Shown here in pieces: positions 22,564 to 51,800 of a DNA stretch of 64,000 bases. The DNA is taken from NCBI GenBank assembly GCA_010405405.1, contig MU004237.1:1561345-1625344 (forward strand). Direction: 5' to 3'. Below the pieces are notes generated by a model, which had not been told where the DNA came from, did not search any database, and saw only the letters and a list, made by a program, of their open reading frames with translations. The stretch's first letter is position 1; each line of letters opens with the position of its first letter. The translations under genes and the position numbers were made by a program. This stretch comes from Microthyrium microscopicum (Eukaryota).

Positions 22564-23216
22564 TTAGTGGACGAAGCAATAAGCCATTGGTAGGCTTGTC
22601 ACATAATGTTAATGAGAGTATGAAATAGAGGAATTGATCACATGGCCTATATCTTGATGGCATATCGCCAATTGATCATTGCTGGTAGCACGACGATTGA
22701 ACTCTTCTCTTCAGTGGGGCATTTTCATGTATTTGCTATCTGATGATCATGTTACTCTGATATAGTGTTGGTTGTGTGACTAGTTGCGTAACAGCTACGA
22801 TTGTGATACCTTAATCCAACTTCAGTCTACCAGTGAACATCGTATGATTATATTGACATCACGTACGAAGGCAGTAAGATGTAAGTAGAGCATTCACAAG
22901 TCTAGTATATTCGCTAAGCGCGCCTTGTAGAGTTTCAATTTTGTTGGAGCGTCGGTGGGAGCTAAACAGACTGATCGGGTTGTGTATTCACTATTTCCAT
23001 CATCATTGGTGGTAATGGTCTGCATACTTGCCAGTACTCATCAACCGAAGATTTACTAGCTTAGAGAGAGTACGACAATACCCTTGCGGTTTGATTCTAA
23101 TGCCAGACTTGCTTATATACTTAAACCATTCCCATCACACCACTTTGGCTCAATCACCACTTAGGACTTCAACTAGTCCTACAAACCTATCGTTGAGACA
23201 CTTTATTAGAAAGAAC

Positions 23217-25353
23217 ATGATTCCATCTACTCTCATCCTTCCTCTGCTAGTGGGTTTCTTGAACGCCGTCGCGATTCCAGGTGAGTGGCCCATTGTTTAG
23301 CTGCCATTTCCAAGTACTAAGCATACTATAGATGGAGCCGGTGAACTTACTTCTCCTATTTCGTCTCTAGTCGAAGCACTCGAGCCTCCTGCCTGTGGGA
23401 TCAAGAATGCTCGTGCGTTCTTCAGTAGATATTTGGTTGAGGAATACTGATGTATGTCAGAGTGCTTAGAGCCACCGGATTACGTGTCATGCTGCGAAGA
23501 ATTCTTTTGTGCGGGCACACGCTGTCGAGATCCGCGTGATTTTGAGTTTAGTAAGTCAAGGCTGCTCGAGGGTTTGAATTTCCCCCTTATGATATGGCCA
23601 GAAAACGGTGTTCTCACCGCTCGCGATACATCGGATATTTCTCTCAAGGTCGTTGATAGCAAGGACGCTGAAACTGGTGGTAAGTTTCTGCGTTGATTAG
23701 CTCAATATTTGATATGAAGAATACTATGTGTGCACTGGCTTTTCTATAAAGGAAGCCTGTGTACGGCCAGTAGCTTTACTACTCTGCTGTTTATGAATCA
23801 AAAATGTTCACATGGTCCAAATCTCTCCTGTTTCTCTATCTCCCGGTAAGTGACCTATATGCTACTCACTTCAATACTACCTATCTCCCATGTCATATTC
23901 TCGAGCTACGAAGAATCACGTATGGCTAACTCATTTCAGATCATCCATAGCGACTTTGAAAATGCTGATTTGTCTCCAGTTATAGGTCGGATTGGGAAAC
24001 GAGATGATCAATCTGAAGCCCGCTGTGCTGCCGTGGGCGGTGAGTAGTATTACCACGACTATTCATTGTTCACTGTCTCATAGATTGCTAGATAGCTGCG
24101 CCGAAAAGTCTTGTTGCGGAGATTTGGTTTCCGCCACATGTCATTCGGAAAAGTCCGTATGTTTTCCTTCCGCTGATAGTACGAATGGTAAGATCTCCAC
24201 CAAGCGATAATCAGTATCTGGGGACTATTGCTTACCAGCTGACCTATAGCCGAAGGAGGAAGTCAAAGCATCGAGGCTCTTGTCGATCCTCCATCACCGA
24301 CGGAGCTGAGACCGACTATAACAAACGTAAAGCGAGACTGCGCACCACAGGGCCGTAGGTCACAACTTGCGAGCATTTGATCAAGCTGCTAAAAGTATCT
24401 GACTAGAGGACTGTCGAACATCAGCTTGTTGCAACCCAGCCAACATATGTGTACCGCGGATAAATGTTCGTAAAAGTCCATATGCTGTTCTATCAAGTAC
24501 TGACAGAGCTTAGGTGTGTCTGCCTCCGACTGATCCTGGTAGGTTGGCAAACTATACTACGGTTCGCATCGACTAATTATTCTCTTCCCAGGTCCCATGC
24601 TAGGAGAGCGAAGCGATGAGAGCTTCCGTGGCATGGAAGATGTAAGGTCGGAGACACGTCTCGTAGACCTCCCCTCAACCGATCCAAGTTAGTGGCCGTG
24701 TCGTTTTGAACAACATAATACTGAAAAGACCGTAGAGATTCCACCAGGCTGTAAGAAGAAGTGTCTACCCAGGTATCACTGCCTTCGTAAGTCTCCTCTC
24801 ATGCCAACATTTCCGAAGCTCTTCTCACGAAATTAGATGGTAAATGTATACCACCGCGTGCGATGCCCATGCAGAAGGATCTTTTGGCTTCAGATACCGG
24901 TGGTAAGTCAGACTTTTCTACGAGGGACAATTTTTGCTTAACAAGTCGAAGCAACCCAATGCAGCCCCTTCGTAACTTGTCCCCAAAATCAAATCTGGTG
25001 AGTTTGTCTCTCCACCCAAATGGTGGAAATCCATGACTCGAATACTTGTCCCAATGCCCCTCCACTTGTTCTCCTGAAAATGAGTAACCTTTGAATTCGT
25101 ACTAATGGTCTTCCAGCAGTCGAGGAAAGTGCATATATCTCCTAAAGAACAAAATCGATACCGGAGGTATGACACCCAATCGACAATGTTTTATCATCAA
25201 ATATCACACGCTCACTAACATTTCACAGAGATATCAAAGAGTCAACTTCTGGGTTGCTGGAGGAGTGGTGCACCATGTAATTTGAACCCTCAGGACTACT
25301 GTTGCTCTGGAATGTGCTATGGATTTACTGGGCAGCAGGCACACTGTGCATAG
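23217..25353 (+). CDS. Multi-exon secreted Cys-rich polyprotein: tandem knottin (ICK) and 4-Cys modules
   Basis: Hand-spliced exons 23217-23280, 23332-23412, 23461-23550, 23602-23679, 23752-23845, 23951-24039, 24092-24187, 24250-24354, 24407-24465, 24514-24538, 24592-24687, 24736-24786, 24837-24902, 24952-24997, 25117-25166, 25229-25353. All introns are GT-AG with compatible phases, and the model gives a signal peptide and repeated C-C-CC-C-C motifs. The junctions around exon 5 are the weakest. Confidence 0.8.
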
Positions 25354-25428
25354 GTTCCTTAAAAGTATTGAAATTTCACGATATTACTATTGAATATTGA
25401 GTATTGAGTACCGGTTTGACGGGTCTAT

Positions 25429-26445
25429 CTAACCTTGCGGATTCAGCACCATTTTGACACCGCTTAGTCCGCCGAAGCCTTTAGTTAGAGCGGCATCCAC
25501 ACCTGCCAAACCTCCGTTCACCTTTTCAATCGGGATGGGCTTCAATTTGTCTTCCGCAAGTGCTTTAGGTAGATAATCATTAGCCAGGTACTCCAGAAGG
25601 CTTTTATGCTCAGGCTCAGCAAGGATGGATGTATAAGGAGCAAAGTGTCTTGTGACACCCTCAGGTAGAGTCTCAGGACCAAATGGTGGCTGCAGTGTGT
25701 AGAGTGTACCACCTCCCTGAGCCTTGAGGACATCGGCTGTGATGTAAACAGTGCGACCGAGTGAGATAGTATCGACAACGAGCTGATATGGCCCTTCGGC
25801 AATGAGAGCTTCTCGAAGAGCATCTTCTGTTTGGGTGTGGTCGATCAGTTTCGCTGCCCCCAGTGTTGAGACGAAAGCTTCATGTTTGGGTGATGTGGTG
25901 CTGATGACTGTATATCCGGCCTGAGTTGCATATTGGATTGCTAGGCTGCCTACACTTGATGTGCCTCCATATATAAGCACTTTCTTCCCTTTGGCAGGCA
26001 CTTGCTCCAGTTTCGGTGAGTCTAGTCCAGCAGTCGCCGTAAGAATAGCTGCAACGGTCTTGAAGTTAATCATGACACTGGATGCAGCATCCATGCTGAC
26101 ATTATCTGGTAGTTTGATCGTGCTTTCGGCTTTGCTTAGTGCGTATAACTGATAGGCGCCATATTTGTTGCCTGGGCCACTACCGCTGGTGGCTACACGT
26201 TCTCCAACATGAAAGTTTGTCACATCAGAGCCAATGGCTTCGACTGTTCCGCCGAAAGAGAAGCCAAGGATGGCTGGATATTCGATTGGAAGGATGGCTA
26301 GGCGGGCGACTTTCCATTCTATAGGATTGAAGGCGATGGATGTGTTCTTGATGAGTAGCTCTTGAGGGCCGGGTGTGTATTTCTCGACTTCTTCTATCAC
26401 AAGTGGTGCTTTGGGTGTATGAATGATAGCTGCGCGATTAGACAT
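25429..26445 (-). CDS. Medium-chain dehydrogenase/reductase (enoyl-reductase-like, zinc-binding ADH superfamily)
   Basis: Intronless 338 aa. GroES-like AFNPIEWK...YPAILGFSFGGTVEAIG and Rossmann VLIYGGTSSVGSLAIQYA. Confidence 0.9.
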   Translation of the reverse strand: MSNRAAIIHTPKAPLVIEEVEKYTPGPQELLIKNTSIAFNPIEWKVARLAILPIEYPAILGFSFGGTVEAIGSDVTNFHVGERVATSGSGPGNKYGAYQLYALSKAESTIKLPDNVSMDAASSVMINFKTVAAILTATAGLDSPKLEQVPAKGKKVLIYGGTSSVGSLAIQYATQAGYTVISTTSPKHEAFVSTLGAAKLIDHTQTEDALREALIAEGPYQLVVDTISLGRTVYITADVLKAQGGGTLYTLQPPFGPETLPEGVTRHFAPYTSILAEPEHKSLLEYLANDYLPKALAEDKLKPIPIEKVNGGLAGVDAALTKGFGGLSGVKMVLNPQG

Positions 26446-27298
26446 GGCTGTTGGGAAGATGAGTACTGGAAGGTATATGAGATCTGAAGGTTAAATGACG
26501 AATTTACTGTGCAATGCAGGTACGGTGGGCAGTTCAGTGTATGAGAGGATTGTGATAAAAGAATTTCTCCTCAGCCTGACAGTACTTATATTCTCTTCGC
26601 GATGCTCACGATTGCTAATGGCTTGGGCGATAGCTGCTCGGCACTTGTGTCCACTTCCCGAATAGTCCCACGATCGGAAGGAGATAGATCCGTCTCACTG
26701 CTGGGTTTACTGGGTAAAACCGTAAGGCACTTTATTGTAAATGACAATATGATTCGTAATACGGCAGATATTGCAATCATGCTGCATACTTGGTGTTGAC
26801 GACGTGCCAGCCCCTAACTTTGAGGGCATCATGATGACAAATGTATCCTTTGGACACCCAAGGTGTTGTCAACTGCCTCGAAGCTGAGCTCATCATAGGA
26901 CGGCGGACTACAATGACAGTCACGCAAGTGTTTACCTTCAGTACGACTTCATTCAGCGGTTGTTGATCGTGACCACGCATGCAAAGGAGGACAGCACGAT
27001 GAAAAGGGGAGAGAACAATGAGCGCTAGTACAAATTAGGCAGCCAATTGCGAGCTGAATTGACAAACAACTCCATTCCATCATCGTCGCCCTTCAACTAT
27101 TTCGCGTTCATACTCCATCAAATTTTATTCATGCTGGTCAATCCTGCAGAATCTGGAAATCGCATACAAACTAGCAATTGCTTATCGCGTTTTTCAAGAA
27201 AGTTCGCCATTCACAGAAGCAACACGTGCACTGATCAAGGCACGTCTTCTCGTCTACATTCGCACTGCTTGAGCGTGGGATTACCACAAGACCTCTTC

Positions 27299-42848: not shown

Positions 42849-45800
42849 TCAACGGCTCACGAGCTTCTTCAACCAGCTCTTCTTTGCGCCAGCGGCTGGT
42901 TCTTGATAGTAGTCATCAGCGGGCGGCACACGGCGTGATCCACGGCGCCGCGCTTGTAGTTCTTCGGAGCTTTCTTGATCTCCTTGCGCACGTGCTTCAC
43001 GCTCGCGCTCTCTTCGTCTCCTTCTCCGGTCTTCGCGGCGGCGTTCGTCGCTACCAGATCCAAGAGGGTCTGTTGGGGGATGGTCGGCGATGGGACCGAG
43101 ATCTTCGGGTGGTGCGGGAGGGTCCGAGGTGAGGCTATCAACCCAGGACGATGTTTTGAGTTTGGCGGGATATGGAGTTGGGGAGGTTTTCTCGTCGGCT
43201 AGGTATGGGGAGGGTTTGGATGAGGTGGTGGGTTCTTCGACAAGATTAGATGCACGGCGGGCTTTGCGGTCGTCATCGCGTGGTTTCTCGCGGATGGGGA
43301 TAGTTGTGGAATCGCGTTTGGAGCGGCGTCGTTCGCGATCCCGGTCTTTGTCGCTGTCCATGTAGGAAGAACGGCGACGGTCGCCACGTGGACGGTCGGT
43401 TGCTTCGGCATCCGTAGTATCACGGTATGATGACTTGCGACGTTCGGCGCGAGGAGGAGAAACAGGGTCGTCGTCTCGATAGCTTGACTTGCGTCTCTCA
43501 GTCTTCGGTCGCTCATCACGATCGGTCTCTGGGAAGTATGAAGATCTGCGTTTCTCTTCGCGAGGTTTGGGCGAGTCGCGGTAGGTCGCATCGCGAGTTG
43601 TTTCGCGTTCGCGCTCCTTGCGACGTTGTCTCCGCTCTTCGCGTTCAGCTTCACGGGTAGCGTCAGCTTTACGCGCGGCCTCTTCATCATCCTTGCGACG
43701 ACGGTCTTCGCGCGCAGCACGGCGAGCTTTGCGATCTTCATCTTCTTGTCGAGCGCGCTCTTCTTCGCGGTCGCGGCGGTCTTTGTCGGCAGTGGCAGAC
43801 TCCTTTTCGCGACGCTTGGCGCGCTTCTCACGGCGTGCATCGTCTTCGTAATCGGTAGCACCGGCAGGCGCAGCGTCGGTGGTGAGTCCATCATCCTCAA
43901 CTGCACGTCTGGAACGTCTCTTTCGTCGGCGGTCTTCATCTGCAGCATCAATGCCCTTGGATTTGCTGCTGCGCGGTGTTGGATCAAGAACTGGATCAGA
44001 ACGACGAGGAGTAGCGTCCTTGGTGGACTTGCTCCGGCCTAGACCAAACAGACCCATGACGCCGCCTGCTCCTGACTTTTTCGGTGTTTGTGAGAGGGTA
44101 GCGGAGCGCTTGAGTTGTCCAGGGCGACGAGGAGAGTCGTCAATGGGAGCGGAACGAGGCAAACTCCGAGGAGGATCACTACCGTCAGGCTGGGTATCTT
44201 GAGTGGATGCGTCCTCGGTAGGAGCAGTAGATTTACGGCGGGTCGATTTGGGAGAGGATTTTATAGGAGTATCGTTGACAAGGTCATCGTCGAGGTCGTC
44301 TTCATCACTGTCGTGATCGCTGAGGGCATATGGATCCAGAGGAAGGGGAGCTGCGGGGAGGTTGGGGTCAGCATGATTTCCAGACCGTAAGATTGGAACG
44401 GGGAAGGCGCGCCCCGGGGAGTACCGGGGTTTAGCCGAGCGTGGCAGGAACAACTTACCAGACGTTGATTTGCTCCTGCCGCGTTGGGGCGCAGCTCCTG
44501 CAGAGCGAGCGGTCAGACCCATGACTTTGGCCGCCTTTGCAGGCATCTTCATGTCCTTGTCCTTTGATGGCAGATCGCCGCCCTCCTGCACGTCGCCCGT
44601 TGCTTTACTTGATTGACGCTTTGACTTGGTTCGCGTTGGCAAAGCCGTTGGTCCGAAAAGTCCAAAAGTCGATGCTCGCTTCGGTGCTGCTGGTTTTGAC
44701 GACTTCTTCTCTGTCTCGGATTTCTTGCCTTCAGTATCTGATGCTGCTGTCGCTGTCGGCTTGCGTGCTCGTCGAGCTGCAGTTGGCGAAGTGCTTTTGG
44801 CTGGCGTCGGCTTGTCTTCAGTCTCCTTGTCTTTTGTCTTGGATTTGGACTTTGTAGGTCGCGGTGTAGCAGGGAAGAAACTGCCCCAGCCACCAGTTGA
44901 ACCGCGTACAACCTTTGGCCGCTCTTTCTTGCTCGATGAGACCTTCGCTGCGGGTGCAGGAGGAGGAGTAGGGGCTTTCGCTGCGTCTGCGTCGACTGCA
45001 GTTGTGCTTCCGGAGCCCAGAGTAGCTGGAGCGTCCTTGTCTTCTGTCCCCTTTTCAGTATCACTGCCGCTGCTGTCGTCGTCGCTGTCTTCTTTCTTGA
45101 CGTCTTTCTTGGGAGTTGTCTTTGCTTTGACTTTGACAGGTTCGGCAGCTTTTGAAGATTTCTTGACGGCGGCTTTTGGAGTGGCTTTCTTGGATTTGAG
45201 GGCACTTTTCATCTTAACAGGTTCAGCAACAGGAGGTGCAGGTTCGTCTTCGGCTTCAGAGGGCAAGGGAGATATTTTATCGTCGTTTAAATCAATGAGG
45301 AGGTTGTCTTCTTCGTCCGACTCTGGGAAACTACCTGGAACAGGCGAAGAAGCTTTGGCCTTTGATGTGGATGGCTCGAGCTTGGAGGCGTTTTTAGACT
45401 TGGTTTTGGAGTCTTTCTTGCCAGCTGTCTTCTTGTCGGCGGCAGGCGTCGACTTTTTACTACTCTTGGAGATTACACGAACCAGCGACTCGGCCTCTGA
45501 CTCCTCTGCGGCGGGTTCATCGGGTTCTGACTCTTCCTTGACCTGATCAGCCTCCTTTTTGGACTTTGATTTGGACTTGGACTTGGATGGGGTGGCGTCG
45601 GCATCGTTGGCATCTTGCAGTGCTTTTATACGGTCTGCAACGCTCGTCTTTGTAATATTGGCAGCTTTTGCCTTTGCTGACGAGGCTGTTGCCTTTGAGT
45701 TTACGGGTGGCTCGGGCAGGGGATCCTGGTCGTTGTCACTCGTTGTTTCCAGCATCTTCTGCGCGCCATTCTTGCTTCCAGCCTTCCCACTGGCTACCTT

Positions 45801-48800
45801 GCCAGCCTTGACCGCTTTAGGCTTAAGCCCAAATTTGGACCAGGCTTTGGTGGCTTGGTCGTCCTCCTCCAATTCAGCCAACAGATCTATTGCCTTCTTG
45901 GACGTGTCGGCGGCCTCATCTTCCTCCTCGTCCATGTCCCAGAGTGACTTCTTCTTGGTCTTTTTCTTGCTGGCCTTCTTGGCCGCTTCCTCTTCGGCCT
46001 CTTTGAGAGCTCGTTCGCGCTCCTCTTCCTCCTCTTTTTCTTTGGCAAGGAGATCTGCTTCCGCTTTCTCGCGTTCCAGGCGTTCCTGTTCATCACGTTC
46101 TTCCTGCTCTTTGCGATCTTTGGCTTCTTTCTCCTTGCGTTCTTTTTCTTTCTTGAGACGTGAAGCAGAGGTGGAAGTTGGAGTGGAACTGCGACCAAGC
46201 ATGCCCCAGATAGAAGTGGCCTTGACCTTTTCCTTGCTCTTGGAGGACGGAGTAGTTGACTTTGGTGGTGGAGGCGGCGGAGGAGGTGGTGGGATATCAT
46301 CAGCATCAGGTTCATCTTTCTTGTCATCGTCGTCCTTGTCGCTAGCAGGTTGCTCATCTTCAGGTATCGGTTCATCCAGAATGCTAATCAATGTGTCCTT
46401 GCTCTTCTTCTCTTCCGTGGCCGATTTTTTACTTTTCTTCAACTTCTTGGGCTCCTCAACAATTTCAACAACCGGATCATCTTCCTCCACAGCCTTCTTC
46501 TTGCTCTTTTTGAGCTTCTTGGGCTCCTCCACAATCTCAACAATCGGGTCATCTTCGTCTTCCACAGCAGCAATAGCTCTGGATTTTGATTTGGACTTTG
46601 ATGCCTTCTCCTCCTTTTCCTTCTCCTTCATCTTTTGTTTACGCAATTTGGCTCTAGTACTGCCATATAACTCCGCATCATTCTCCTCCTCAGACTTGTG
46701 CTCTGACACATCCTCAACCTCGTGTACTGGTAAGTTGTCATCGTCATCTTTGACTTCCTCAACCGTAGATTTAGACTTCTTTTGACTTTTCTTGGACTTC
46801 ATGCCAAATTCGGCCCATTCGTCTTCATCTGTAGCTTTGGCCTCGTCAACATCCTCAGGAATCATGACTTTGGCATCTTCCTCGCCCTTTTTCTTTTTCT
46901 TGTCCTTGGACTTTGAGCCAGTGATGGTGAGTGCCCAGTCATCGTCCTTCTTATCGGAACTGGCTTCAGACGCGATGGAGTTGCGTTTCTTCTTCTTGTC
47001 GGATTTGGATGGGAATGGATCACCCCATGCGTCGTCAGGATTGTCAACAGAATCCAGAAAGTCCTTGACATCTTTATCACCCGTGTCGGCATCGGCTTTC
47101 GCCGCCTCTGCCTCCTCTTTGGCCTTGGCTTCCTCAGCTTTGCGATCATCATACTTGCGCTGGGCCTTTGTTTTCTTGAGACCCTTGAGCTTTTTGATTT
47201 CATCAAGCTCTGCTTCGTCACGCCGCTGCATCTCCTCTTCCTCTTCTTTAGCTTTGGCCTCCGCTTCAGCTTCCGCGGCAGCTTTGGCAGCCTCTTCCTC
47301 CTCCTTGGCCTTGGCATCTGCTTCCTCCTTGGCTTTAGCTTCTGCCTCCTCTTTGGCCTTGGCTTCTTCAGCCTTGCGCTCATCATATTTGCGTTGAGCC
47401 TTGGTTTTCTTGAGACCTTTGAGTTTCTTGATTTCGACGAGTTCAGCTTCATCGCGAAGTCGAGCTTCCTCTTCTTCAGCAGCTTTTGCAGTGGCCTCAG
47501 CATCTTCATCATCCTCTTTCTTGGACTCGGCTTCTGCGTCAGCTTCAGGCTTAGGTTCGGGATTATCTTCCTTTGGATCCGCATCGGCTTCGACATCTTT
47601 ATCTTTCGAATCGGCTTTGGCGGCAGCTTCTTCCGCTTCCTTGGCCTCCTTGTCTGCGGCTTCTTGAGCTTTGCGTTCTTCATACGCCTTCTGAGCCTTC
47701 TTGCGTTTAGCGCCAGAGAGGACCTTGATGGCCGCAAGTTCTTCCTCATCGCGCTCTTTCGATTCCTGTTCGGCTTTGGCAGCAGCAGCGTCAGCTTCGG
47801 CTTTAGCTTCCTCAGCTGCTTTCTCAGCTGCAGTATCTGCTTCTGCGGCTGCGTCGGCGTCTGTTTTGGCCTTTTCTTCCGCTTCAGCCTCCTTGCGCTC
47901 ATCGTATTTCTTTTGCGCGCGCTTCTTCTTGGAGCCGGTGAGAAGTTCAATAGCCGCGAGCTCTTCTTCGTCGCGTTGTTTAGCTTCATCCGCTTCGACG
48001 TCTTTTGTGGGTTCGGGCTCGGGCTCAGCTTTCTCCGCCTCTTCAGCCTTGTCTGCAGCTTCAGCTTCCTTGCGATCATCGTATTTCTTCTGCGCACGCT
48101 TCTTCTTAGAACCAGTGAGAAGCTCGATAGCCGCGAGCTCGTCTTCGTCGCGTTGTTTAGCTTCGTCCGCTTCAGCGTCCTTCTCGGGCTCAGGCTCGGG
48201 CTCTGCTTTGTCTGCCACCGCAGCTGCTTCAGCCTCTTTATCTTCAGCTTCCTGAGCTTTGCGATCGTCGAATTTCTTCTGTGCGCGCTTCTTCTTGGAA
48301 CCAGTGAGAACTTCAATAGCCGCGAGCTCCTCTTCGTCCCGTTTTTTAGCCTCGTCGTCCACGTCGGCATCTTTCTCGGGTTCAGCTTCAGGAACGGCTT
48401 TGGCGTTCTCTGCCTCTTCAGCTTCCTTGTCTGCGGCTTCTTGGGCTTTACGGTCGTCGTATTTGGCCTGTGCACGGCGTTTTTTGGATCCATTGAGAAG
48501 TTCGATGGCAGCAAGCTCGTCCTCATCGCGCTTTTTAGCTTCATCATCCGCATCTGCCGTAGCGTCTTTCTCGGGTTCAGGCTCAGGCTCAGGGGCAGCT
48601 TTTTCCTTTTCCGCTCCTTCGGGCTCTCTGTCTGCTGCTTCCAGGGCTTTGCGGTCGTCGTACTTAGCCTGAGCGCGGCGTTTCTTAGATCCAGAAAGGA
48701 GTTCAATGGCGGCAAGCTCGTCTTCATCGCGTTTTTGGGCTTCCTCATCAGCTTCCGCTCTGGCGTCATTTTCGGGCTCAGCTTTAGCAGTAGCTTCGGC

Positions 48801-51800
48801 CTTTTCCGCTTCTTCAGCTTCTTTATCAGCAGCTTCTTGGGCCTTGCGATCATCGTACTTGGCTTGCGCGCGCTTCTTCTTAGAGCCTGTCAGCTTGCTG
48901 ATAGCCGCGAGTTCTTCTTCATCGCGCTTTTTGGCCTCGTCTTCTGCTTCAGCATTGGCGTCTTTGTCGGCATCAGCTTCTGGCTCGGCTGATTTGTCGT
49001 CCGATTTGGATTCAGGCTCGGCATCGGCGTCAGCTTTGGATTCGGCTTCTTCCATTTCCTTGTCGAGAGCTTCTTGCGCTTTACGGTCGTCGTATTTCTT
49101 TTGAGCCTTCTTCTTTTTGGATCCAGATAAGAGTGAAATAAGAGCGAGCTCTTCGTCGTCGCGATCCTGGGCATCCTGCTCGGCCTGAGCTTTCGCATCA
49201 GCATCGATCTCTGGTTCCTTTGATTCAATCTCTGCTTCAGCAGCTGCATCACCATCAGCTTTGGCTTTGGCTTCTTCCTCTTCCTTATCAAGAGCCTCTT
49301 GTGCTTTGCGGTCGTCGAACTTCTTTTGGGCACGTTTCTTCTTGGATCCAATCAGGGTGGCAATGACTGTAAGCTCGTCCTCATCTCGCTGTTTAGCTTC
49401 CATTTCGGCCTGAGCTTTAGCGTCCTTTCCAGAAGAATCGTCAACGGCGGCGCCGTGCTCAGCATCATCTTTGGCGTCTTCATCAGGTAGAGCCGCATCT
49501 TTCGCTTTCGCTTCTTCCTCTTCCTTGTCGAGTGCCTCTTGAGCTTTACGATCGTCGAACTTCTTCTGGGCTTTTTTCTTCTTGCTACCAGTCAAAGAAG
49601 CAATGACTTCAAGCTCAGCTTCATCCCGCAATTTTGCCTCCTCCTTAGCCTGTGCTTTTGCATCATTGTCTGCATCGGCTTGGGTATCGGCAACAGCAGC
49701 ATCAGCTTCAGCCTTTGTATCAGCCTCCTCTTTTGCCTTGGCCTCGGCCTCCTCTTTCTCTGCCAATTCCTCTGCTTTCCGATCGTCAAATTTCTTTTGA
49801 GCGCGCTTTTTCTTCGCGCCAGTCAACTTGGCAATCGCCGCTAATTCATCTTCATCTTTCTGGCGTGCCTCTTCCTCAGCTTGAGCCTTCGCTTCATCGT
49901 CGGCGGTGGTATCAGGTTTGACGTCGTCCTCGTCCTTCTTCTTTGATTTCTTGTCAGATGAAAACGAGTCCCAGAAATCATCGTCAGCCTTCTTGTCCTC
50001 CTTGCCCTTCTTTTTCGATCCTGAGAAGCCGCCCCAGATATCGTCGTCTTCTTTCTTATTGTCGACTTCTTTGGCTGCTTCAAGCTCAGGCTCATCCCAA
50101 GCAAATGCAGACTTCTTTTTCTTCTTGTCTTTGGTGCTCTTTTTGGATGACGAAGTGGCAGTGGTCATGGCGTCCCAGTTGTCATCGTCAGCTTTCTCGG
50201 ATTTGGCAGTGTCGGCTTCGGTGTCGAGAGATTTCTTCTTCTTTTTTTTGCTGGCAGATGAAGCGACGGTCATGGCATCGTCGTCCTTCTCAGGATCCTC
50301 AGAGGCCGTGTCCTTCTTGCTTTTCTTTTTCTTGCCAGAAGATGTGAAGCTAGCCCACATGTCGTCCTCTTCCTTCTTGTCTTCGGGCTCTTTCTTCGTC
50401 TTTTTGGTTGTTTTGGAAAAGCCGCCCCAGGCGTCATCTTCGGCGTTGTCTTTCGTCTCATCTTTCGTCGCATCGTCGTCGTCAAAAGACCAGGAGGACT
50501 TCTTCTTCTTGTCGGCCTTTGGAGATTCTGCCTCAGGCTCTTTCTCCTCCTCAAGTGAATCGATGCCCCAGATGCTTTTCTTCTTCTTTTTCTTCTCCTC
50601 CTTAGGTGACTCGGCTTTGGTGTCGGCATCTGGCTTGTCGTCGTCAAAACTACCAAGACCATATAGACCACCATATTTCTTTGTCTTTTCGGATTTTGGC
50701 TCTTCTTCCACAGGATCCCAGAAAGACTTCTTCTTGGGCTTTGTAGTATCTTCAGTGGAGCCGCCCCAGCCGCCCCAAGTGTTGAGCGGTTTGATGTCCC
50801 CGACTTTGTCTTCTTCTTCATCCATGTCAGCCCAGGATTTCTTCTCGTCTTTTTTGTCAGAAGAACCCCAAGAGAAGCCAGTCGATTTCTTTTCGTCTTT
50901 GGATTTGAGACCTTCAGAAAGCAGCGAGGTGTTCTTCTTTGGCTTGGAACCACCCCAGCCGCCCCAAGAGTCATCCTCTTTGGACTCTTCCTTCTCGTCG
51001 TCTTCGTCAAGATTGTCTAGAGAAGAGAGACCCTTCTTCTTCGTAGTGGTTTTCTTTTTGGCCATACCCCAACTCGTCCACTCCATGTCATCCTCTTTTT
51101 TATCCTTGGTGCCGCCTGAGATTGGAGGCGGATCGTCAATTTCCGTGATGCCAATAAAGCTCTTGTTTTTCTTGTCTTTGCCCCAGATGCTGTCGGTCTT
51201 GTCGGTCGCTCCGAGGTCGAAGCTGAGCGAAGACTCATCCTTTAGCCCAAAGTCGAAAGAGCTGTAGTCAGCAGAAGATTTCTTCTTCTCTGCCTCCTTT
51301 TCTTTCTCCTTCTCCTTTTCCTTGTCTTTGGAGCCAAAGCCAAATCCCAGGCTAGACCCAAGAGATTCGAAGCCCCAGCCACCGCCTCCTCCGATTCCAA
51401 GGTTCCCAAGGAAATTCTTGCTGTCGTCTTTCTTCTTGTCGGTATCCAGGTCGAGGTTGAGCATGTCGTCATCTTTTGAGGCCTCGTTGTCGAGAGAAAC
51501 ATCTTGAAAGCCATCATCGTCCTTGGTAGAAGCCTTGATAGCGCGTTAGACAATTGCAAATCTTCATAAGATGTAAAGATAAACACACCTTTTGCTTTTT
51601 GCCTTTCTTGGTCTTCTTTGCCCCAAAGCCCGACCATTCATCACCATCATCGTCGGCGCCAATACCAGCATCAGCCCAGACATTAGTGAGATCTTCATCC
51701 TTCTTGCTCTCTTCTTCCTTCTTCTTGTCTTCTTCTTCCTTCGACTTCTTCTTCTTCTTCTTTCCAAAGCCTGGTACACCCCAACCATCATCGTCGCCAG

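Follow-up and report, generated by a model that had tools for sequence, protein, structure and literature searches.

The window analysed here is a 64 000 nt stretch of contig MU004237.1 (assembly GCA_010405405.1) from the fungus Microthyrium microscopicum, and all coordinates refer to it. On its + strand, from an ATG at 23217 to a TAG at 25351-25353 (23217-25353 overall), lies a gene of 15 exons and 14 introns encoding a protein of 363 amino acids, in which a signal-peptide-like N-terminus is followed by six small cysteine-rich modules, M1 to M6. The region 22800-25800 was read, the exons were traced by hand from candidate splice sites and the result was then verified by script: the coding sequence is open over its 1092 nt (363 codons) and specifies 32 cysteines. 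An original prediction, made from the sequence, had joined fragments of open reading frame (ORF) into one protein by means of short in-phase introns. That construction holds through all 14 junctions; its count of about 16 exons and 15 junctions was one too many. Every intron runs from GT to AG and has a G at donor position +5. Twelve of them are 48-62 nt long and the other two measure 119 nt (24998-25116) and 300 nt (23680-23979). The guanine-plus-cytosine (GC) content of the introns is 41.5%, compared with 50.5% for the exons. The gene looks native to the fungus because the 48-62 nt introns are of typical fungal size and the exon GC content is close to the 48% of the window. The exons and the transcript features discussed below are as follows.

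Exons 1-5, + strand, spliced model: 23217-23280, 23332-23412, 23461-23550, 23602-23679 and 23980-24039
Exons 6-10, + strand, spliced model: 24092-24187, 24250-24354, 24407-24465, 24514-24538 and 24592-24687
Exons 11-15, + strand, spliced model: 24736-24786, 24837-24902, 24952-24997, 25117-25166 and 25229-25353
23172-23216, + strand: 5′ untranslated region, minimum extent, from a metatranscriptome contig that starts at 23172
23680-23979, + strand: phase-1 intron of 300 nt, the sole long one, with the same junction in the deposited protein KAF2667818.1
24903-24951, + strand: intron of 49 nt, retained in the GenBank model, with a GTAAGT donor, a TTAAC branch-like site and an AAG acceptor

A 244 nt contig from a soil metatranscriptome matches the 5′ end of the gene with no mismatches. 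It joins 23172-23278, 23330-23412 and 23461-23508, with introns 1 and 2 removed; the RNA depth at the gene is 2.3, from one environmental run. The contig is spliced exactly at these two introns, which shows that, for its 5′ part at least, the gene is naturally transcribed and spliced. The sequence has no ATG between 23172 and 23217.

A word search with an 81-residue exon-level frame retrieved the protein that is deposited for this locus, KAF2667818.1 (hypothetical protein BT63DRAFT_457118, M. microscopicum; 355 amino acids), which is also UniRef100_A0A6A6U9M4 and carries the UniRef name ‘WAP domain-containing protein’. To call the gene hidden was thus an overstatement: the locus is annotated in GenBank, and what would be hidden is its correct C-terminus. 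KAF2667818.1 is identical to the spliced model over residues 1-290, a span that includes 11 of the 14 introns, the 300 nt intron among them. It keeps the 49 nt stretch 24903-24951, diverges after residue 290 and loses M5 and M6, because the retained intron shifts the frame. When read against the DNA, the deposited tail also uses introns 24998-25116 and 25167-25228, in the shifted frame and with an early stop, so that 13 of the 14 introns are common to both models. After residue 290 our model has 73 residues with ten cysteines, arranged as one four-cysteine and one six-cysteine module, compared with 65 residues and two cysteines in the deposited tail. An alternative AAG acceptor at 24945, six bases upstream, would give a 43 nt intron and leave the frame unchanged. 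From this internal logic of the sequence we judge the C-terminus with M5 and M6 to be the right one and the deposited tail to be wrong.

Three introns have further features. The 300 nt intron holds a nested intron-like unit, with GTAAGT at 23846, a CTAAC-type branch site and a CAG ending at 23939, and it also holds short cysteine-bearing open frames, one of them with a Cys-Cys doublet. These features could represent an alternative exon, or what is left of an exon or module that has decayed; a phase-compatible use of them was not found. An extra exon within 23680-23979 was considered and rejected, since hand tracing gave no phase-compatible candidate pair of acceptor and donor and KAF2667818.1 also uses the single 300 nt intron. 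Intron 3 (23551-23601; 51 nt) has no in-frame stop, and an ORF at 23451-23696 runs across it; its retention would add 17 residues to the linker between M1 and M2 and leave the frame intact. The acceptor of the 119 nt intron is a CAGCAG tandem (25111-25119), in which use of the second AG would remove one serine after the third cysteine of M5 and keep the frame.

The protein has the following parts, the modules being delimited by their first and last cysteines and the loops given as the numbers of residues between successive cysteines.

23217-23273, + strand: signal-peptide-like N-terminus of 19 residues with an A-x-A end; Kyte-Doolittle hydropathy averaging +1.9 (remainder of the protein, -0.39)
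23394-23525, + strand: M1, six cysteines, residues 43-70, loops 6/8/0/4/4, acidic (isoelectric point 4.4), from the cysteine framework
24024-24162, + strand: M2, six cysteines, residues 120-148, loops 6/4/0/7/6, acidic (isoelectric point 4.8), from the cysteine framework
24339-24519, + strand: M3, six cysteines, residues 187-213, loops 6/4/0/5/6, from the cysteine framework and an AlphaFold2 model
24750-24847, + strand: M4, four cysteines, residues 257-272, loops 3/5/4, strongly basic (net charge +5), from the cysteine framework
24960-25132, + strand: M5, four cysteines, residues 294-311, loops 5/5/4, from the cysteine framework
25255-25347, + strand: M6, six cysteines, residues 332-362, loops 6/7/0/3/9, C-terminal and in one exon, from the cysteine framework and an AlphaFold2 model

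A true inhibitor cystine knot (ICK) is defined by disulfides I-IV, II-V and III-VI, the third of which threads the ring. The ICK framework C-x6-C-xn-CC-xn-C-xn-C, on which the original prediction was built, occurs four times, in M1, M2, M3 and M6, and the first loop has six residues in all four. The signal-like segment, the two four-cysteine modules and the acidic or proline-rich spacers that it described are likewise present, and all of the peptides that it quoted are found where it had placed them. The linkers are 20-49 residues long and are acidic and/or proline-rich, and cysteine makes up 9.3% of the mature protein. The 363-residue protein has no N-glycosylation site, no hydrophobic C-terminal tail and no Ser/Thr-rich tract.

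Models were calculated with AlphaFold2 from single sequences, using KAF2667818.1 as the query for M1 to M4 and folding M6 alone from its exon. The model of KAF2667818.1 is poor overall, with a mean predicted local distance difference test score (pLDDT) of 46.5, and its linkers (pLDDT below 50) are predicted to be disordered. M3 stands out from this background, in that residues 190-220 have a pLDDT of about 81-92, in blocks of 92, 90 and 81; M4 reaches 57-73 as a short helix and a β-hairpin, and the separate model of M6 has a mean of 76.7. In a Foldseek search of the PDB with M3, ten of the 48 matches listed, the top three included, were knot peptides from venoms or sponges, with target-normalized template-modelling scores of 0.34-0.68. 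VIA-align against representative structures placed 30 of 37 matches with Z of at least 2 on residues 176-235, about 23 of these being knottins by title; examples are purotoxin-1 (root-mean-square deviation of 1.4 Å over 31 residues) and asteropsin G (2.0 Å over 30 residues). Overall, M3 superposes on solved knottins with deviations of 1.4-2.5 Å over 29-34 residues. For M6, all 20 Foldseek matches were small disulfide-knot peptides, as were 28 of the 30 from VIA-align, the best being spinach trypsin inhibitor III (Z = 3.8, 2.5 Å, 32 residues, 34% identity), with bidentatide at Z = 3.5. A sequence search of the PDB with M6 (E ≤ 10) gave ten matches, six of them cysteine-rich peptides of at most 38 residues, the best being the antifungal knottin PAFP-S (E = 0.039). 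The same search with KAF2667818.1 gave chance-level matches only (E ≥ 1.6), and Pfam had nothing above threshold, either for KAF2667818.1, with no family at E ≤ 10, or for single exons. The models thus support a knottin-like predicted fold for M3 and M6.

No relative of the protein was detected. A word-indexed search of 5.8 billion proteins with residues 1-290 and a phmmer search of 1.84 billion representatives each returned the protein itself only; a scan of JGI metagenome contigs gave 95 pattern matches, none of which was confirmed; comparison of the last exon with proteins of 22-70 residues gave no candidate; and the ESM Atlas gave no usable lead (best feature score 0.80, structural template-modelling score ≤ 0.35). 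Among the matches listed from a tblastn search of the window with the six modules, which were those of M1 to M4, only the gene itself appeared. The gene is a real, native and expressed orphan of a Dothideomycete fungus. A horizontal origin from an animal or a plant was considered and rejected, as no relative supports it and the intron sizes and GC content look native.

As had been claimed, the modules are divergent: BLAST among the six found no significant similarity beyond the cysteines. In this six-sequence database, M4 and M5 are the sole pair with E below 0.1 (E = 0.021), followed by M5-M6 (E = 1.0) and M2-M3 (E = 1.6), and the alignments extend over 2-6 residues; M4 and M5 share the four-residue motif G-K-C-I. 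The introns are more regular. Twelve of the 14 are in phase 1 (binomial P = 8 × 10^-5 at p = 1/3), and nine of the 13 internal exons are 1-1 symmetric. In M1 the phase-1 intron 23413-23460 lies between Cys I and Cys II, in M2 the phase-1 intron 24040-24091 follows residue 4 of loop 1, and M3 is split at the same place by the phase-1 intron 24355-24406 and again by the phase-0 intron 24466-24513; the loop-1 position is therefore identical in M2 and M3 and lies one residue later in M1. M4 is split before its last cysteine by the phase-1 intron 24787-24836 and M5 within the codon of its third cysteine by the 119 nt phase-2 intron, so that in both modules an intron lies just before or within the cysteine that precedes the G-K-C-I motif. 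In the last 10 nt ahead of the donor, three exon ends read almost alike. Exon units were probably duplicated in tandem and then diverged strongly to give this architecture. Introner-like elements were considered as a source of the introns and rejected: the 14 introns share words of at most 8-9 nt and have no other copy in the window.

A bolder proposal, to which we give little chance, is that this is a lineage-specific gene built in the manner of animal venom or matrix genes, in which symmetric phase-1 exons were duplicated and diverged into a hetero-array of knots; tandem knottins would then have been invented independently. Skipped exons or retained introns could give rise to a family of knot arrays, since 1-1 symmetry holds for nine of the 13 internal exons and the stop-free intron 23551-23601 is in frame. 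If this were true, one fungal locus would provide a combinatorial peptide arsenal.

Two Lys-Arg (KR) dipeptides outside the modules are candidate sites for the protease Kex2.

23997-24002, + strand: KR site 1, residues 111-112, with Ile at P4, seven residues before Cys I of M2, from the motif
24330-24335, + strand: KR site 2, residues 184-185, one residue before Cys I of M3, from the motif

Both lie at most nine residues upstream of the first cysteine of a module, for which 20 000 shuffles gave P ≃ 0.014 in a post hoc test. An aliphatic residue at P4, as in site 1, is the preferred Kex2 context in excerpts of a preprint on SnTox3 (10.1101/2020.05.27.120113). Two Leu-x-x-Arg (LxxR) motifs, at residues 83-86 and 223-226, also lie in linkers. 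LxxR 83-86 and KR 111-112 follow an acidic stretch of low pLDDT; the cysteine module M1 lies upstream of this stretch, which therefore cannot count as a simple pro-domain. Two of the five linkers, M4-M5 and M5-M6, have no KR, other dibasic or LxxR site, and no recognizable cleavage site separates the signal peptide from M1. Given the two linkers without a site, cleavage would yield no more than about three to five pieces, M4, M5 and M6 remaining joined, and not six peptides.

Our preferred explanation, held tentatively and at slightly less than an even chance, is that the gene encodes an array of disulfide modules, four of knottin type and two smaller, that is secreted, is cut into about three pieces and has a binding or blocking role outside the cell. 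In outline, the six disulfide-rich modules would fold and oxidize in the endoplasmic reticulum; a Golgi kexin would cut the two KR sites and, with lower probability, the two LxxR sites; the exported products would be two acidic pieces, one with M1 and one with M2, and a larger one that carries M3-M4-M5-M6; and outside the cell the protease-resistant knots would bind or block the proteins or membranes of other organisms, as antimicrobials or inhibitors do. Secretion, cleavage, target and activity are what we infer here. We give a roughly even chance to the view that the role outside the cell is one of binding or inhibition directed at competing organisms. M. microscopicum is a leaf-litter saprobe and not a known pathogen. 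An antimicrobial or inhibitor role fits a litter or soil setting, and it is in soil that the transcript was seen.

Several observations weigh against this explanation. M1 and M2 have pLDDT values below 50 and no confident model, so that the claim that the modules are cystine knots is supported, on structure prediction, for M3 and M6, whose models match solved knottins, while these two are candidates from their cysteine framework. None of the fold-search scores is significant by itself (Foldseek E ≥ 1.2, Z ≤ 3.8), domains of about 30 residues being unable to attain a high Z. AlphaFold run on a single sequence may echo the fold that it has learnt for a given cysteine spacing, and the models are then not independent of the framework. 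The Pfam matches of M6 fall below the gathering thresholds (Omega-toxin PF06357, 14.1 bits versus 22; Conotoxin PF02950, 13.2 versus 25.1). Most antimicrobial peptides, unlike M1 and M2, are not acidic. As the modules have no significant mutual similarity beyond their cysteines, duplication rests on the intron positions, and no relative was found that could show purifying selection; an orphan gene may have little or no function. No RNA was found over exons 4-15 or for the other 12 introns. The 49 nt intron on which M5 and M6 depend has a rare AAG acceptor and conflicts with the deposited model. Finally, the numbers of processing motifs are at chance level: two KR dipeptides outside the modules against 0.94 expected from composition (P for at least two = 0.26), and two LxxR sites against 1.4 expected. 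The view that KR sites release a cocktail of peptides accordingly survives in part, in that both sites stand just upstream of modules; their chance-level number and the two siteless linkers speak against it.

[quoted passage not shown] The linkers, rich in proline and in small or polar residues, resemble those described for SCREPs in excerpts of PMC9885460. We consider this rather unlikely, though it has to be taken seriously. Both KR sites directly precede a module and one has the preferred aliphatic P4 residue; the linkers, with a predicted pLDDT below 50, should be accessible to kexin; and at 20-49 residues they exceed those of most two-domain SCREPs, 85.6% of which have linkers of fewer than 20 residues according to the same excerpts. 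At the other extreme stands a true polyprotein, from which every module is freed to give a cocktail of six different knotted peptides. In its favour, three of the five inter-module linkers contain between them two KR and two LxxR sites, and Kex2-processed fungal polyproteins with non-identical peptides are known, with a case from Candida in excerpts of PMC6339444. It is improbable all the same, as there is no site between M4 and M5, between M5 and M6 or between the signal peptide and M1, and another protease would be needed.

The lack of relatives in phmmer, word-indexed and metagenome-contig searches, an RNA depth of 2.3 in one run and possible decayed exon material in the 300 nt intron are what one would expect of a young orphan or a decaying gene of little or no function, in which the cysteine frameworks are remnants and the transcript is noise. 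Against this, the frame is open across 14 junctions, all 32 cysteines fall in regular frameworks and M3 is confidently folded in the model, and we give such a gene only about one chance in ten. A structural protein of the cell wall or of adhesion, uncleaved and anchored, would account for the modular, cysteine-rich organization, the signal-like N-terminus and the proline-rich linkers. It is very improbable: the protein lacks a hydrophobic tail of the glycosylphosphatidylinositol-anchor type, N-glycosylation sites and a Ser/Thr-rich tract, and it matches no wall-protein family in Pfam.

The neighbouring genes in the window are ordinary and intron-poor: a DEAH helicase (793-codon ORF), an alcohol dehydrogenase-like gene (353-codon ORF) and an AA12-like gene. 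With 14 introns in 2.1 kb, 12 of them in phase 1, the present gene is a structural outlier beside uninterrupted neighbouring ORFs of 793, 353 and 2898 codons, and the neighbouring genes show no logic of a gene cluster. Other features of the neighbourhood are as follows.

25409-26490, - strand: zinc-type alcohol dehydrogenase-like gene, one ORF of 353 codons
28669-29902, - strand: two adjacent ORFs (186 and 182 amino acids) that match successive profile positions of the luciferase-like monooxygenase family, presumably one gene split by an intron
42849-51545, - strand: uninterrupted ORF of 2898 codons with many overlapping long ORFs on both strands, which suggests a compositionally biased or repetitive coding region

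A sequencing run with the same species label, the kind of which is uncertain, contains a contig of 1111 nt whose end, at 25409, lies some 20 nt beyond the stop codon of the alcohol dehydrogenase-like gene. If the run is RNA, 25409 may mark the 3′ end of that transcript; the knottin gene, on the opposite strand, has its stop codon only some 55 nt away. The run covers 25409-25500, in the neighbouring gene, and nothing of the knottin gene, and no conclusion was drawn from it.

Single-domain fungal knottin effectors and tandem knots of animal venoms were known before; here, a mixed array of six modules occurs in one fungal protein. If the modules are stable, independently folding binders they would amount to six new disulfide scaffolds. 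The protein also offers a way to test the extent to which kexin processes folded polyproteins. Its outlying intron structure bears on the rise of modular secreted genes in fungi. For annotation, the deposited sequence would be in error beyond residue 290, and the UniRef name misleads.

That name, which was assigned automatically and goes back to a PROSITE profile, refers to a domain that, like the present modules, is cysteine-rich and has a Cys-Cys doublet. The WAP four-disulfide core has eight cysteines; the modules have six or four and KAF2667818.1 has no Pfam family, WAP included, at E ≤ 10, and Pfam lends the label no support. The cysteine spacing of M2 and M3 resembles that of the first six cysteines of hevein; there is no Pfam match to hevein/CBM18 at E ≤ 10, and M2 and M3 have no aromatic residue after the doublet. 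Among plants, multi-knottin precursors exist, of the cyclotide and TIPTOP types. The closest likeness of M6 is to the plant knottins PAFP-S (PDB code 1dkc), bidentatide (8hjc/8hjd) and spinach trypsin inhibitor III (4aor/4aoq), which share with it the pattern C-x6-C...CC-S-x-x-C, 31-38% identity over about 32 residues and superpositions of 2.1-2.5 Å. These proteins have a single domain, whereas M6 is the last of six in a fungal protein, and the E values (0.039-0.43, against the PDB alone) are non-significant for homology; the resemblance may be convergent.

The ICK toxins of venoms, including the tandem DkTx and the double-ICK toxin of a remipede, which excerpts of PMC9885460 place in the SCREP class, share the six-cysteine framework, the predicted fold of M3 and M6 and the arrangement of tandem knots on proline-rich linkers. 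The present protein differs in being fungal, in having six modules of two kinds on linkers of 20-49 residues and in having no measurable sequence similarity between modules. According to the same excerpts, some SCREPs are cleaved at KR, and the ScrepYard definition asks for a signal peptide, by default more than four cysteines and more than 10% cysteine (at least 5% in the analysis set), and neighbouring domains that match each other in BLAST at E < 10. Here the cysteine content is 9.3%, and neighbours match at E = 0.021-1.6, over 2-6 residues and in a six-sequence database.

Among fungi, single-domain knottin effectors include Avr9 of Fulvia fulva, MLP124266 of poplar rust and candidate families of Venturia inaequalis (excerpts of PMC9632046). 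They too are secreted cystine-knot proteins, and Venturia is also a Dothideomycete; they are small and single-domain, and the word-indexed and phmmer searches found no sequence relation to the present protein. The knottin folds of the fungal ‘bubble protein’ are, in excerpts of PMC13525654, likewise single-domain, with LxxR processing. In the literature on fungal knottins and Kex2 and on tandem ICK precursors, no description of a fungal multi-knottin protein was found among the matches listed. Kex2-processed repeat proteins (KEPs; excerpts of PMC6339444) and Kex2-processed pro-domain effectors (excerpts of 10.1101/2020.05.27.120113) also have a signal peptide and KR sites in disordered acidic stretches before putative mature parts. 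KEPs consist, in those excerpts, of identical or nearly identical short peptide repeats, each flanked by KR or RR sites; here only two KR sites lie outside the modules, which are folded, cysteine-rich and unlike each other. The protein is thus a variant on fungal knottins, tandem cysteine-rich repeat proteins and kexin-processed precursors and not a separate category.

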